Of a stretch of 64,000 nucleotides of DNA, positions 3,925 through 54,411 are shown piece after piece. Positions within the stretch are counted from its first letter, which is position 1. Every line of letters begins with the position of its first letter. The notes under the pieces are model-generated. The model searched no databases. It was not told the origin of the DNA and was given only the letters and a program-made list of their open reading frames with translations. The stretch is from an uncultured Hormoscilla sp. (GTDB lineage: Bacteria; Cyanobacteriota; Cyanobacteriia; Cyanobacteriales; Desertifilaceae). The stretch covers positions 6,112,001 through 6,176,000 of the forward strand of contig OZ001293.3 of the NCBI GenBank assembly GCA_963921275.4. Direction: 5' to 3'. A program made the translations under genes and the position numbers.

Positions 3925-4236
3925 ATGAATGTATTGCTGACATCAGAACTTGAGGAATTTGTTTAAAAAAAAGTCAATACTGGCAAATATCAGTCGGCCA
4001 GCGAAGTGATTATTGTCCCATTGCGACTACTTGAACAACAAGACAGAATTCGCCAAATGCAAATCGATAAACTGCTTCGATGTCTCTGGGGAGCGCTATT
4101 CGCACTACCCCAGAGACATCGATCGGAAATTGCTATTGGTATTGAGCAAGGCGAGAGAGGAGAAGTTTTTGATGGGGAAGAGGTAGTCAGAGAACTACTT
4201 GAGGAGATCGACCAAGGGGAGCAAGCCCAACAATGA
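3925..4236 (+). pseudogene. parD: ParD-like antitoxin with internal stop and in-frame palindrome insertion
   Basis: ATG 3925 reads MNVLLTSELEEFV*KKVNTGKYQSASEVI (TAA at 3964-3966), GxYxSASEV motif; 45-bp insert at 4076-4120; overlaps the parE start. Confidence 0.8.
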
Positions 4237-4586
4237 GCCATTATATTCTGACCGCTCAAGCAAAACAAGACCTAAAGGAAATTAAAGATTACATCCTCAC
4301 AACCCAGCAGCGATATCTCCTGTGTGCCGAGTCCCCTGGGACAAGAGCACAGCAGGAGATATCGAAAGCAAGGCGTTTTGTTCAGGCATTCCGGCAGCAA
4401 TGCCAGCTTATAGCCAGGTTTCCGGAGATAGGTCGCAGTTATAGTCAACTAGCTCCTGCATTACGAGGGTTTCCACTTGAGAACTACATCATCTTCTACC
4501 GTCCGGCTGCAAAGGGAATAGAAGTTGAGCGTCTGCTGAGTGGCTACCCTGACTTAGAGGCTCTTTTGTTGGAAGCTGAAGAGTAA
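4233..4586 (+). CDS. parE: ParE/RelE-family toxin, probably damaged by a palindrome insertion
   Basis: AKQDLKEIKDYI...FPEIGR...LRGFP..YIIFYR; 55-bp palindrome at 4312-4366. Confidence 0.8.
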   Translation: MSHYILTAQAKQDLKEIKDYILTTQQRYLLCAESPGTRAQQEISKARRFVQAFRQQCQLIARFPEIGRSYSQLAPALRGFPLENYIIFYRPAAKGIEVERLLSGYPDLEALLLEAEE

Positions 4587-4719
4587 TGATTTTTCCATTA
4601 GTTTAAGCATTATATTCTTAGTCGGTTAAAACCTTCCTTTAGCTATGACGCGGGAAGCCTTTGGGTTTTAACTCCCGGTGAACCTCCGGCGAGCTAATAG
4701 CGAAGAGAGGGAATTATAA

Positions 4720-5088
4720 ATGACTATTATGAACAGTGAAACCTGGATTATTTTCTATGCCGAACCGGAACAACCGGGATGGGAAACTCGCAAGCTGCCA
4801 ATGGGGGGACTGACGGATATCCTAGATGAACAGTTAGATTATACCGAAAAGGGAAGCATTCCTAAAGTAGGTGATCGGCTACGGCAATTTCTGCGCATTC
4901 CGGACTTTGCTTCGAAGCGGTTTCCTGAAAGTTCTACTCATGTCCGAGATGGAGACTGGGTTGTGACTCGGGTGGAAAGCTATTCCCCTAAATCTCATGA
5001 TTGTTCCAAAAGGGAAATTGTAGTGCTTCTAACGATCTCCGGAGACATCGAAAGGGCAATGCCAACAAGTGAGGAGATCGCCAGATAA
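4720..5088 (+). CDS. Hypothetical protein
   Basis: 122-aa ORF with upstream purine-rich RBS; no recognised motif. Confidence 0.55.
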   Translation: MTIMNSETWIIFYAEPEQPGWETRKLPMGGLTDILDEQLDYTEKGSIPKVGDRLRQFLRIPDFASKRFPESSTHVRDGDWVVTRVESYSPKSHDCSKREIVVLLTISGDIERAMPTSEEIAR

Positions 5089-5159
5089 AATGCGATCGCA
5101 CTTCTTCCCTAAAGGAACTACCCACCCCGTCAAGTAAGTCGATGGCGACCCCAAAGAGC

Positions 5160-5192
5160 AAAAATCAAGCGGGCCTTGTCAAGAAGCCCGCC
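5160..5192 (-). terminator. Probable rho-independent terminator after rpsU
   Basis: GCGGGC...GCCCGC hairpin followed by a T-rich tract on the minus strand. Confidence 0.55.
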
Positions 5193-5245
5193 TGTATGTG
5201 ATCAATATGGAATAACTAGAATTAACCTAGCTAACAGTAGATGTA

Positions 5246-5425
5246 TTAAAAATAACGCCGTTTACGTCGGGCTGCAACTAACTTGCGTTTGCGCTTCTCC
5301 GGTGGAGTTTCAAAATGGCGACGGCACTTGACATCTGCTAAAATCCCGGCCTTGGAAACTTGGCGCTTAAACCTGCGTAAAGCGGAGTCTATTCCTTCGT
5401 TTTCACCTACTACTACTTGAGTCAT
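5246..5425 (-). CDS. rpsU: 30S ribosomal protein S21 (copy 1; not in ORF track)
   Basis: Manual translation [48 protein letters not shown]...; AGGAGG RBS. Confidence 0.95.
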
Positions 5426-51148: not shown

Positions 51149-51194
51149 TTATTAGATATTTTTTAGGAAGTTATATCATGACAAAACACGAAAA

Positions 51195-51640
51195 GTAAAA
51201 CAGAACAGGAATAATTGCTGACTCTTCTACTTGAAAAGGAAGGAATTAAATTTTCTGAACCATATACCATAATGCGAAAAAAAGACATTAATGTCCCACC
51301 ATTATCTTTCGCTCAGGAACCTCTATGGCACTTTGAAAAAAATCAATTAAAGGTTTACTTAATGTAAGGGCATGAGAACAGAGATTGAAAGAAATTGTGC
51401 ATCGCCACGCAATACTGCGAACTACTTTTCCATCTGTAAATGAGCAACCACTACTATTGGTTTCTCCAAATTTAAACTCGATAATGTAAATAGTAGATCT
51501 TCAGGATTTCTATAATCCTATGGAAAGGTTATCTGAAGCTCAAAAACTGGAATCTCAGCAGCCTTTTTCTTTGGCACAATATCCTTTGTTTAGGGTAAAA
51601 CTCCTGCATCTGTCCAGAGAGTTCAATCTGCGCACTTTAA
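51195..51640 (+). pseudogene. Heavily decayed NRPS condensation-domain start
   Basis: PLSFAQEPLW, IVHRHAILRTTF and QPFSLAQYPLFRVKLL remnants with stops and frameshifts. Confidence 0.7.
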
Positions 51641-52283
51641 ATTTAATCTTCCAATCATTCACCCCGATCGCTAGCAATAAAATTGCGAATAATTCCTTTT
51701 TCTCAAACAGACTTGCGTTATTTCAGCAATTTGGTATAGCATGGATACAGTGGTAAATTGCCCTAACTATGACTATTTATACCTAAGTCTGGCAAAATTG
51801 GCCGAAAGGGTAGGTTTTTCGCGGACTCAGTCTTCTTTAAGGGTCTCTTTTCCCCGGAAACACCCCAAGCAGAAGCACAATATTTTTTTGATACCTCTAG
51901 GAGTACGGTTGACAAATCAAGAAAAGATGGGAATGTCAAAAAAACCGTAAATAAAAGATTGTGGTGGGAAGAAGAGTAGGAAAAGCGACAAGATGACACT
52001 GAGAAAGGATGGAATTGTCGGGCGCTCGGGTATTTCTGATGAACCGGTAGTAAGAAGATCTGGGCCGTAGAAAATTGGCGATCGGGGTAGAAAAGAAAGT
52101 AATATGGGTAAGAGTTGTCAGGTTGTCAGGGGACCGGAGCGATCGCCCAAAGATGGAGATTGTAGGTAGGGTAGAGCGCCAGCGAAACCCAATATGAGCA
52201 TGGTAGGGTTGGGTTTCGTTCGGAAACCCAACCTACAAGAGCTAAAATGACAATGTTTTTAGTCGGTTTTCAACCGACTGTAG

Positions 52284-52901
52284 CTATGACGCGGGGGTTT
52301 GAACCTCCGGCGGGGTAACGGAACTCCGATTGCCCTTCCGTTTCTGCACAGAAGACTGGCGAATGGGAATCGAAATGGCGAACTCTGCCCCCTCACCTGG
52401 TGCGGAAATACATTCGAGAGTGCCTCCATGTTTTTCTACCACAATCTGGTAGCCCCCAACCTGCCCCAACCCCAAACCCGTGCCCTTGCCCACAGGTTTA
52501 GTAGTGAAGAAAGGGTTAAACAAATTCTTTTTCGCCGACTCGGTTATCCCCGGTCCATTATCGGCAATACGGATGGCGACGCGATCGCAATCAATCTTTT
52601 CTGCGCTCGTCCAAATAGTAGGAATAGGATTCTTTGATTGTCCCGACTCGGGAGTCTGTGGCGATGAACGATCGCTTAAACCATAAGCTTCTTCCAAGGC
52701 ATCGATCGCATTATTGAGTAGATTGATAAACACTTGGTTTAGTTGCCCGGGATAGCACTCAATGTAAAAGAGACTACCATACTCTTTAAGCACCTGAATT
52801 ATCGGATCGCCGCTCTGGTTTTTCAGCCGATTTTGCAGGAGCATTAAGGTACTGTCGATGCCAGAGTGAATGTCAGCTGCTTTCATATCTGATTCGTCCA
52901 A
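52284..52901 (-). pseudogene. Histidine kinase C-terminal (HATPase_c) fragment
   Basis: QLNQVFINLLNNAIDA, IADNGPG, PFFTTKPVGKGTGLGL; upstream replaced by nested palindromes and a MITE. Confidence 0.82.
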
Positions 52902-53095
52902 CCGCAGCTCCGATGTGCTCTGCTGCTGTGTCTCCTGGGAGCTCGATGTCCCCCGGGAGCGCTACTCGCACTACCCGGGGGACACCGAAGTCGCACTACC
53001 CAGGAGACACAGCGCGCTACTCGCACTGCGCGGAGCACATTAATCGCACATCGTGCAAAGATAGGACTATCTTGCGGATGCGATGGGCTCCATTT

Positions 53096-53358
53096 CAATA
53101 CTTCTCGGTTAACAATCTGTCATTGCGAGGGGGAAACCAAAACCGACATTTTAGGGCTCCAAGCGATGATCCCCCCGTTAGCGCAGCGGCCCGACGCCAG
53201 GAGGGCTAGCAATCTCACCGACGACGCCGGAGAACTCTTCATCTCATACGGGGCGGGGGGATTGCTTCGGGGGGGGGTTAACGAACATGAACACATAAAT
53301 TAATCGCTACGTACCCCCCCTCGCAATGACAAATAAAATCCTTAACCGAGAAGTATTG
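53096..53358. mobile_element. 263-bp MITE (IS4-like ends)
   Basis: Perfect 17-bp TIRs CAATACTTCTCGGTTAA; 10-bp duplication GGCTCCATTT; internal TGTCATTGCGAGGGGG...CCCCCTCGCAATGACA palindrome. Confidence 0.88.
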
Positions 53359-53380
53359 GGCTCCATTTTGCATCTGCATA

Positions 53381-54411
53381 TTAAAGGCGATCGCCAGTTT
53401 GGACATCAAACCAATGAATCCGATCGGGTGGCACAGCTAAGGTAAGTCGTTCTCCTTCCCAAGCTTGGTCATTAGGCAACAATACTCGCAGAGTCAACCC
53501 ATCTGCGATGTCCGACGGGCAGTGCGAGTAGCGCGCCCGGAGGGCATCGAAACCCTCAACCCTAAGCCTGATGAGATTGTGCATTCCCAAATTTTCCACC
53601 AAATCTACCGTTCCTTCAATCTTCTGAGGGTCTTCTGGGCGGGCGAGGCGGAGATGTTCAGGACGAATACCCAGTATAATGGACGGGGACATTTGGAGCA
53701 ACTCCCGCCCGTGCATGAGAAAGTCCCCCAAAACCGCAGCTTGTCGGTGGCATTGCAGTTGGAGTAAATTCATCTGGGGACTACCCACAAAAGAAGCGAC
53801 AAATTTATTAGCTGGATGGGTATAAATTTGCGTGGGGGTGTCTAGTTGCTGGACTATCCCATTGTTGAGAACTGCCACTTTATTAGAGAGAGTCATTGCC
53901 TCGGTCTGGTCGTGGGTGACGTAAATTACTGGCACTTGCTGGGATGCAAATATCTTTTTCATCTCAGCTCTTACCCGTTCTCGTAGTAGGGCATCCAGGT
54001 TACTCAGGGGTTCATCCAGTAAGAATACATCAGGACGACGCACGAGGGCGCGACCCAGAGCAACCCGTTGCCTTTGTCCCCCAGATAGTTGACCCGGTTT
54101 GCGGTCCATTAACGCTTCCAGTCCTAGCAGTTTAGCATATTCAGCGATCCGCTGTTTGATTTCAGAAGAGGGTACTTTTTTCAACTTCAGTCCCGATGCC
54201 AAGTTGTCATATACTTTCATGTGGGGATACAGGGCGTAGCTTTGAAACACCATCGCCATGTTGCGATCGCCCGGTTGGAGGTTTGTCACATCCCGCCCAC
54301 CGATTAATATCTTTCCCCGAGTAGGTTGTTCTAACCCTGCTATCATCCGCAGGGTCGTTGATTTGCCACAACCCGACGGTCCCAATAAGGTAAGAAATTC
54401 TCCATCTGCTA
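53381..54411 (-). pseudogene. MalK-type sugar ABC transporter ATPase, 5'-truncated
   Basis: GPSGCGKST, LSGGQRQR, LLDEPLSNLD; in-frame stop just upstream of LADGEFL; 45-bp palindrome in frame at 53507-53551. Confidence 0.8.

Follow-up and report, generated by a model that had tools for sequence, protein, structure and literature searches.

A family of 45-base mobile DNA hairpins in the cyanobacterial genus Hormoscilla, with recent insertions in protein-coding genes

The genus Hormoscilla comprises cyanobacteria that live as symbionts of sponges. The genome of one of them carries a family of very small DNA hairpins that is mobile, and recently so: copies are missing from the orthologous places of other species, and an insertion in a gene for an ABC ATPase distinguishes near-identical strains. 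The stretch of DNA analysed here, referred to as the window, comprises 64,000 nucleotides of an uncultured Hormoscilla sp. (GenBank assembly GCA_963921275.4, contig OZ001293.3, positions 6,112,001 to 6,176,000), or C1:6112001-6176000 of the 7.03-Mb assembly that we call G000; its congeners are G001-G004. An initial annotation of the window had described a palindromic element of 45 bp, or 15 codons, with arms that change together, and had read it as a mini-element mobilized in trans. A covariance model made from 33 copies was used to scan the window, the congeners, and other cyanobacteria. It found the family across G000 and recovered all four copies that had been described in the window, at 42.8-74.8 bits. 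These copies, with the nest that encloses one of them, are as follows.

4076..4122, plus strand: clean copy in a parD-like gene, T plus a 46-base hairpin with 15 of 15 stem pairs, 74.8 bits; the extra 45 bases are 4076-4120.
49781..49827, plus strand: clean intergenic copy, 15 of 15 pairs, 74.7 bits, 10 bases past the stop of the open reading frame (ORF) 48488..49771.
52909..53043, plus strand: three-level nest, the outermost member being a subfamily-B element with arms CGATGTGCTCTGC / GCGGAGCACAT.
Inside this nest, plus strand: middle element with arms GCTGTGTCTCCTGGG / CCCAGGAGACACAGC.
52942-52988, plus strand: innermost copy of the nest, in the loop of the middle element, 14 of 15 pairs, 68.9 bits.
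53505..53551, minus strand: copy with an imperfect stem, 11 of 15 pairs, in the ABC ATPase gene, 42.8 bits; the extra 45 bases are 53507-53551.

The unit is made up of one base, mostly T, a 15-base arm, a tip, and the complementary arm, and the foot of the hairpin marks its ends. The 15-bp stem is capped by a conserved asymmetric tip, A-GCGC-TA-NNN-GCAC-TA, which forms a short helix of its own (A-T, G-C, a C.A mismatch, G-C, and C-G). This helix is recovered in the minimum-energy DNA fold and covaries in one subfamily (GCACTA..CGTAC, 18 copies). Folded as single-stranded DNA, clean copies reach energies of -17 to -19 kcal/mol, with z values of -6 to -8. A census of G000 with the core GCGCTANNNGCAC, one mismatch being allowed and the register between the two 15-base arms being fixed, returned 168 copies in which 13 or more of the 15 stem pairs are Watson-Crick, and 219 if 12 pairs suffice. 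Among the 168 there are 109 distinct left arms, with right arms that are still complementary. Within the window, the loop motif occurs 11 times with up to two mismatches, against an expectation of 0.16 and a maximum of one across 100 shuffles. The loop ends in CACTA, which with the C that follows reads GTAG on the opposite strand of most copies, in this case within the loop of a long hairpin; the base counts in the 168 copies are 168 for C14, 167 for T15, 158 for A16, and 162 for C as the first base of the right arm.

That the arms change together, as first proposed, is borne out by the 33-copy alignment, which was limited to copies in which 13 or more of the 15 stem positions pair. In all, 96% of its cells pair, a percentage that is biased upward because the copies were selected for good stems. 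The two-sided changes are free of that bias: 14 of 19 pairs have changed on both sides, in 92 cells, and none of 500 shuffles matched the observed covariation. One-sided changes of the wobble type occupy only 7 of 627 cells, and among the stem mismatches of copies with 10-14 pairs, G.T (79) is not in excess over A.C (112). The rarity of one-sided changes and the lack of a wobble excess argue for a palindrome that operates at the level of DNA over an RNA under selection. In one subfamily, the same non-complementary positions inside the stem (ACTCG opposite CTCGC) recur at no fewer than five loci in two genomes, from which it follows that both arms are copied unchanged and that a perfect stem is not needed. 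The same shared mismatches rule out the re-templating of one arm from the other at each jump. A derivation of the arms from the target was likewise rejected, as matches between arms and flanks are not copy-specific (z -2.7 to 1.7).

The elements insert into one another. By a flank rule applied to the 168 copies, 44 are nested, 31 of them in the loop of another copy after AGC and 13 before GCGCTA; copies of subfamily B are also found within the right arms of other copies. One nest seen in the comparison with G004 is missing from the orthologous copy in G000. The nest at 52909..53043 is common to G000 and G004, at a paralogous or orthologous place. As side observations, a (T)CAT(Y) motif lies 5-9 bases past the right arm, is generic rather than copy-specific, and has its CAT at +6 in 26 of 124 single copies; in about half of the single copies genome-wide the leading T comes after CC. 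A role for the CAT at +6 to +8 as a start codon on the opposite strand was ruled out, as the frames downstream are short and have non-coding scores. At G000:C1:5277775-5280555, the loop of one element is split by about 2.7 kb containing ORFs of at most 141 codons, an interruption that could be an intron or a different mobile element lodged there.

Evidence of mobility is provided by orthologous sites at which the element is absent. The parD site is empty in all four congeners, which read AAACTGC|GAGCGG, and the ABC ATPase site in all three compared (G002, G003, and G004), which read GAGGGT|GCAGATGG on the strand of the element; the 15-residue segments are missing from these orthologues. In tmk, the gene for thymidylate kinase, G001, G002, and G004 run uninterrupted through GCTCGCC|GACTC, whereas G000 has 135 extra bases, a nest of three elements that adds 45 residues, and G003 shares the outer element but differs in what lies inside it. 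Turnover was measured over 1.2 of the 6.9 Mb of G004 against G000, where 40 copies (15 of G004 and 25 of G000) have a recognizable orthologous place. At 14 of these the copy-bearing genome is longer by 39-48 bases, that is, the copy is absent from the other species. A further 16 are of equal length and represent shared copies, some of them counted from both sides; in nine the other genome holds additional sequence, mostly further nesting, and one differs by +25. A list of G000/G004 indels of 30-200 bases, drawn up without regard to the family, holds 113 entries, of which 34 were flagged as the 45-base family (11 of these 34 being of exactly 45 bases), three come from a second hairpin family, and many of the remainder are other hairpin repeats.

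Public sequencing runs, here X1 and X3-X6, extend the comparison to closer relatives, in the form of assembled unitigs in which rare variants and true depths are invisible. A contig of 1003 bases from X3, which differs from the window at six positions (99.4% identity), skips exactly 53507-53551, the extra bases of the ABC copy, and the empty site is likewise spanned by contigs from X4 and X6. The parD copy is present without differences in X1, X3, and X5 and is skipped by a 3878-base contig of X4. The ABC insertion is therefore younger than that in parD, since X3 has the latter without the former. The intergenic copy at 49781 has joints skipping 49781-49825 in X1, X3, and X4, where only 30-31 letters lie on either side; the loop of this copy has the variant TAA, and homology to the congeners stops nearby, at 49749. 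The empty-site joints in X1, for both the ABC and the 49781 copies, have a depth of 73-79 compared with 152-181 in the flanks, which is no more than suggestive of a mix of filled and empty alleles within that sample, given unitigs with 30 letters per side. Flank probes of 74 loci from relatives gave 34 "empty" calls, many of which match paralogous repeats, and a single one (L108) was used. The mobility first proposed for the element is thus observed between species and between near-identical strains.

The family is confined to its genus in the genomes scanned. Matches to the covariance model occur in five of five Hormoscilla genomes, at 46 to at least 150 per genome; 26 other relatives gave none, nor did 150 further cyanobacterial genomes, scanned at E up to 1e-6 with stricter filters. 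An exact 22-base pattern searched against a collection of species genomes hit at least 74 stretches and, among the matches listed, all are in Hormoscilla records. The literature searched on Hormoscilla repeats and palindromes, Hormoscilla comparative genomics, and cyanobacterial miniature inverted repeats yielded no description of these elements.

Filled and empty alleles can be aligned to the base in 12 clean events of the TTCGATG type, the main subfamily: tmk, parD, ABC, G4C1:280836, G4C2:28082, a second G4C2 site, G4C10:67071, G4C23:89898, C1:1190458, C1:1938633, C1:5863575, and L108. In each, the filled allele equals the empty one except that 47 bases, T plus the 46-base hairpin, stand in place of a dinucleotide, G-N, for a net gain of 45. 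In all 12, G is the first base replaced and T leads the insert, which follows a C in eight. The second target base was overwritten to complete the stem in seven, already fitted it in three, and was kept unpaired in two (ABC and G4C23:89898). No target duplication was found in any of the 12, in agreement with the initial annotation. Its suggestion that the parD copy splits a HIP1-like site did not hold. HIP1 is GCGATCGC, and the empty parD site, GCGAGCGG (CTGC^GAGCGG), matches it at only six of eight positions; those of the ABC gene (GAGGGT^GCAGAT) and tmk (GCTCGCC^GACTC) also lie outside HIP1, as do all 12 clean events. The GATCG seen in the parD of the window arises because one base differs beside the insert, so that excision of the 45 bases gives CTGC|GATCGG. 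At the G004 orthologue of C1:822674, TTCGA..TGA is kept around a 39-base gap, which looks like the footprint of a deletion. As a separate observation, at least seven copies lie at one and the same site, GCCCGCC^G.GGGTTCAAACCC, within a different dispersed repeat that has a tRNA-T-arm-like GGTTCAAACCC (for example, G000:C1: 4134040, 4752248, 5431609, 5863575, and 6220620). This repeated position is either a hotspot or part of a composite element that spreads as a whole.

A substantial minority of copies lie within genes. By a heuristic based on codon scores, 34 of the 168 copies (29 single and five nested) are in ORFs with a coding signal on both sides, 27 in the sense and seven in the antisense orientation, and 24 of 30 host ORFs have Pfam domains. 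Among the Pfam matches of the hosts are PEPcase, Topoisom_bac, tRNA_synt_2f (GlyS), Peptidase_M17, and Thymidylate_kin, and further hosts encode Omp85, ARC6-like, NFACT, CbiG/methylase, and PIN proteins. Genes are nonetheless avoided or purged rather than preferred, since long coding-like ORFs, which by a rough estimate cover some 55% of the chromosome, hold only 48 of the 168 copies. Four of the six reading frames through the element are nearly always open, in 157-167 of the 168 copies; one is open in 87, and one never.

The length of 15 codons, put forward initially as a property of the element, is the usual net gain, although inserts of 43, 44, 46, and 48 bases also occur, those that are not multiples of three being outside genes. 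Simple G000/G004 indels in long ORFs are multiples of three in seven of seven cases (six of 45 and one of 48), compared with two of five outside them (43, 44, 45, 45, and 46); Fisher's exact test, worked by hand on these small numbers, gives about 0.045. The "15 codons" therefore partly reflect selection. The two peptides read initially from the window were correct: LRCLWGALFALPQRH is added in frame to the parD-like ORF 4006..4236, and FDALRARYSHCPSDI is added in frame to the C-terminal TOBE/OB domain of a MalK-type ABC ATPase (ORF 53381..54385; Pfam ABC_tran, TOBE_2, and OB_MalK), whose alignment to MalK 1g29 ends at the insert. Insertion into proteins in frame holds for both as far as the frame itself is concerned, but parD has a premature TAA at codon 14 (3964-3966), where G001, G002, G003, and G004 have CAA (Q) and X4 has C at 3964, so that the host gene of that copy is probably no longer intact. 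The replacement of G-N, the filter on length in genes, and presence or absence at the level of strains are new relative to the initial annotation.

Our preferred explanation, which we consider probable, is that these are genus-specific, non-autonomous mobile DNA hairpins, likely copied in just 5' of a G by a trans-acting enzyme that would recognize the folded single strand; both the recognition of structure and the enzyme are what we infer. Movement would be of the copy-and-paste kind at the level of DNA, with both arms copied as they stand, because the subfamily described above keeps its internal mismatches from locus to locus. Complementary arm variants would persist since only foldable copies propagate, perhaps with some arm-to-arm correction, and genic copies that preserve the frame would survive while those that break it are purged. 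More speculatively, the penultimate G of the element may pair with the target and the displaced flap be trimmed, leaving a dinucleotide replaced. A bolder version, which we hold only tentatively and think may well be wrong, is that a structure-defined unit of 47 bases, among the smallest mobile DNA described, is now being inserted by a copy-in pathway not previously described, which overwrites two target bases at G, uses neither a recognizable nor an element-encoded transposase, and builds peptide segments in housekeeping enzymes stepwise, by single and nested insertions.

A number of observations weigh against the involvement of such an enzyme or against its uniform action. The initial annotation had suggested looking for a co-occurring HUH/RAYT, TnpA, or reverse transcriptase gene, and none could be tied to the element; nor was a long autonomous version with the same ends found. 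Matches to PF01797, the Y1 transposase family, occur in 29 of 31 relatives, compared with five of 31 for the element, so the Y1 genes do not track it. The strand counts of the copies (113 plus and 106 minus) show no regional switch and no bias of the sort that lagging-strand-specific single-strand transposition of the IS200/IS605 type might give, although the cumulative GC skew, with no clear origin or terminus, makes them uninformative on this point. To our knowledge, the HUH, DDE, and recombinase pathways do not leave two replaced target bases. The junctions are not wholly uniform, as copies with CTGTG or GCYGTG arms lack the leading T and gave +44 (two events) or +46 (two events), a gain of +43 came from insertion into a loop, and one event has TT at its start, ahead of CG. 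Finally, the ABC copy had acquired its four stem mismatches on arrival or soon after, despite its youth, which argues that a perfect hairpin is not required. An autonomous element with shared ends was considered and rejected: there is no recurrent spacing, and the five neighbouring end pairs 0.5-4 kb apart have no gene in common.

The empty-handed search of the genome for a mobilizer lends some weight to a route that relies on host replication and repair only, in which a nascent strand at a nick or stalled fork would copy an existing hairpin and return at G microhomology, with a flap nuclease trimming two bases. Replacement of two target bases, the first of them G in 12 of 12, is what this would leave; the two events of the 12 in which the second base is kept look as if copying had ended one base early, and the G004 allele at the C1:822674 orthologue resembles a slippage deletion. 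We nevertheless regard such a route as unlikely. The junctions are far more uniform than is usual for template switching, the leading T and the hairpin foot being the same in all 12, the microhomology amounts to one base only, and A as the second base is not enriched among targets (3 of 12). Moreover, all relatives have the same repair machinery, yet the family is limited to one genus.

The GTAG on the opposite strand of most copies raises a different prospect, namely that this is a repetitive extragenic palindromic (REP) element of the GTAG type moved by the RAYT/IS200-like Y1 transposase of the genome, with recognition by way of the tip, which reads on the other strand as GTAG with a short hairpin. 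G000 has two PF01797 matches, and REPs within genes are known from other bacteria (PMC3733652). The details make this quite improbable. The better Y1 ORF (L001, at G000:C1:241580-242290, or C1:241795; PF01797 2e-18, HUH motif DHLL) lies between inverted copies of a two-hairpin repeat, CCACCCTAAAGGGTGG-GGCTACANGAACAA-AGCCCGCCTGCGCGGGCT, that has 204 matches on both strands of the genome, an arrangement classical for REP/RAYT systems of the GTAG type and distinct from the 45-base family. The other match, at 23 bits, is weak, and no 45-base copies lie close to it. The Y1 gene of G001, G002, and G004, which scores 100 bits, is unmatched in G000, the genome with the youngest insertions, and the broad distribution of Y1 genes also speaks against it, as may the even strand counts.

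Movement through an RNA intermediate has reportedly been proposed for the small dispersed repeats (SDRs) of Nostoc. Applied here, a transcript would fold and then enter DNA by reverse splicing or reverse transcription, and the stem does covary as those of structured RNAs do, with insertion free of target duplication. We give this very little credence: neither the wobble counts nor the scarcity of one-sided changes fits it, genic copies are found in both orientations, Rfam has no match in window positions 3900-4500 at E up to 1, and reverse splicing is not expected to overwrite a target base. That the element is not mobile at all, being a vertically inherited structural or coding motif or an assembly artefact, has no supporting point and can be set aside in view of orthologous empty sites in congeners and other samples, 109 arm variants at unrelated loci, and its presence in five independently assembled genomes.

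The window contains further copies that are degenerate, worn, or nested.

5597..5644, plus strand: degenerate intergenic copy of subfamily B, arms CGATGTGCGATGCG / CGCATCGGCACAT, 33.8 bits.
19082..19140, minus strand: nested pair, the inner copy lacking part of its right arm, 25.6 bits; the site is close to codon 25 of an open frame of 792 codons, also on the minus strand.
44923..44967, plus strand: worn copy with its loop opposite in orientation to the leading T, 25.8 bits.
46052..46186, minus strand: nest of three, outer arms TCGATATCTCGGGAG / CTCC..CGAGACATCGA, 38.7 and 36.6 bits.
46135-46172, minus strand: short-armed copy in the loop of the outer element of that nest.
46076-46122, minus strand: subfamily-B copy within the right arm of the same outer element.

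Between the nest at 52909..53043 and the ABC gene lies a block of about 286 bases (window 53078-53363) with terminal inverted repeats, GGGCTCCATTT.. and ..AAATGGAGCCC-like, and runs of G/C. It is skipped by contigs of X1, X3, and X6 (joints 53073->53360 and 53077->53364) and looks like a polymorphic MITE (miniature inverted-repeat transposable element).

The parD copy sits in a toxin-antitoxin module with a history of its own. The congener ORF matches ParD_antitoxin (5.2e-10), and the parD of G002 has a different stop further on. The adjoining ParE_toxin ORF, 4233..4586, contains in frame a second hairpin family (window 4295-4366, plus strand, 72 bases; arms CGATATCTCCTG / CAGGAGATATCG, core GCCGAGTCCCCTGGGACAAGAGC) with arms that resemble those of the 45-base family, and a contig of X4 has 21 other letters in place of this 72-base segment. 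The core of the second family has 52 matches in the genome, and a copy with the opposite loop orientation lies at window 34271-34327. The module is probably decaying in this genome, and decay of parDE seems to have occurred in several lineages.

Further families of this kind distinguish G000 from G004. A 39-base hairpin (TCGTGTCCAGAGACGCC..GGCGCTCTCGGACACGA), with variants of 64-72 bases, accounts for at least seven more differences in presence or absence (e.g. C1:1953960, 2154202, and 5370261), and a 54-base hairpin (GGTGTCTTCCGCATGC..GCATGCGGAAGACGCC) for others. The genus Hormoscilla carries tiny mobile hairpins of several families.

Small repeats of hairpin form that spread with no known enzyme, among them the Rickettsia palindromic elements (RPEs), the SDRs, and many REPs, have long been a puzzle. 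The Hormoscilla family makes it tractable, with hundreds of copies, many filled/empty pairs from five congeneric genomes, a defined junction signature, and insertions young enough to split near-identical strains. Here, selfish DNA adds blocks of 15 residues, and nests of 45, to enzymes such as thymidylate kinase, PEP carboxylase, topoisomerase I, and GlyS, so that one can test how well proteins tolerate such inserts and how new loops originate. In the annotation of symbiont genomes, the inserts account for domain matches that are over-long or split.

Among the closest known kinds are the SDRs, of which SDR1-8 of Nostoc punctiforme and its relatives were reportedly described by Elhai et al. in 2008. 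They are said to be very small mobile hairpin repeats of cyanobacteria, with units of 21-27 bases, compared with 45-47 here, and to have compensatory stem changes, self-nesting, no target duplication, and no known mobilizer. The Hormoscilla family has compensatory stem changes too and nests within itself. We know of no report that SDRs colonize housekeeping genes systematically and in frame. As far as the account in PMC5861425 goes, SDRs are reported only in Nostocaceae and SDR5 sits in HIP1, unlike the Hormoscilla target, which is a G mostly after C, the empty parD site not being HIP1.

The RPEs, of about 150 bp and in ten families (PMC10969869), resemble the present elements as palindromic, non-coding-looking repeats that lie in frame in unrelated, functional-looking genes of a host-associated bacterium, add a short peptide, and have no known mobilizer (PMC10969869, PMC3733652). 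Here, the palindromic repeat lies within ORFs that stay open in 34 copies, and tmk, ABC, and parD can be set against empty orthologues. The unit is 45-47 bases, compared with about 100-150 bp for the RPEs of the genus Rickettsia, and was found in Hormoscilla genomes only. Self-nesting, restriction to one cyanobacterial genus, and differences between near-identical strains set the family apart from the RPEs as these are described.

REPs and REPINs associated with RAYT include intragenic GTAG and CGTC REPs (PMC3733652, PMC3116915). Like them, the Hormoscilla elements are short, GC-rich hairpins, some of them genic, and REPs are thought to be recognized as folded single strands. Most copies have a GTAG on one strand, next to the short hairpin of the tip but inside the loop of the long hairpin. 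Unlike in REPs, the stem is of 15 bp rather than 5-13 (PMC3733652), and copies are single or nested instead of head-to-head dimers. The RAYT-like gene is flanked by another family, and gene and repeat do not co-occur. MITEs and their like (Correia/NEMIS, ERIC, and Nezha) share the plan of inverted-repeat arms that bracket a short core in a non-autonomous element (PMC10969869), and the second Hormoscilla family shares arms while differing in core, as MITE families share terminal inverted repeats. At 45-47 bases the unit is much smaller than MITEs, for which 70-300 bp is given; the 12 clean events are free of target-site duplication, and no long element recurs with the same ends. On the points that could be compared, the family is therefore neither a REP/RAYT system nor a MITE. 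It is RPE-like in its in-frame colonization of genes and SDR-like in its tiny size, self-nesting, and insertion without duplication, while being a member of neither group.

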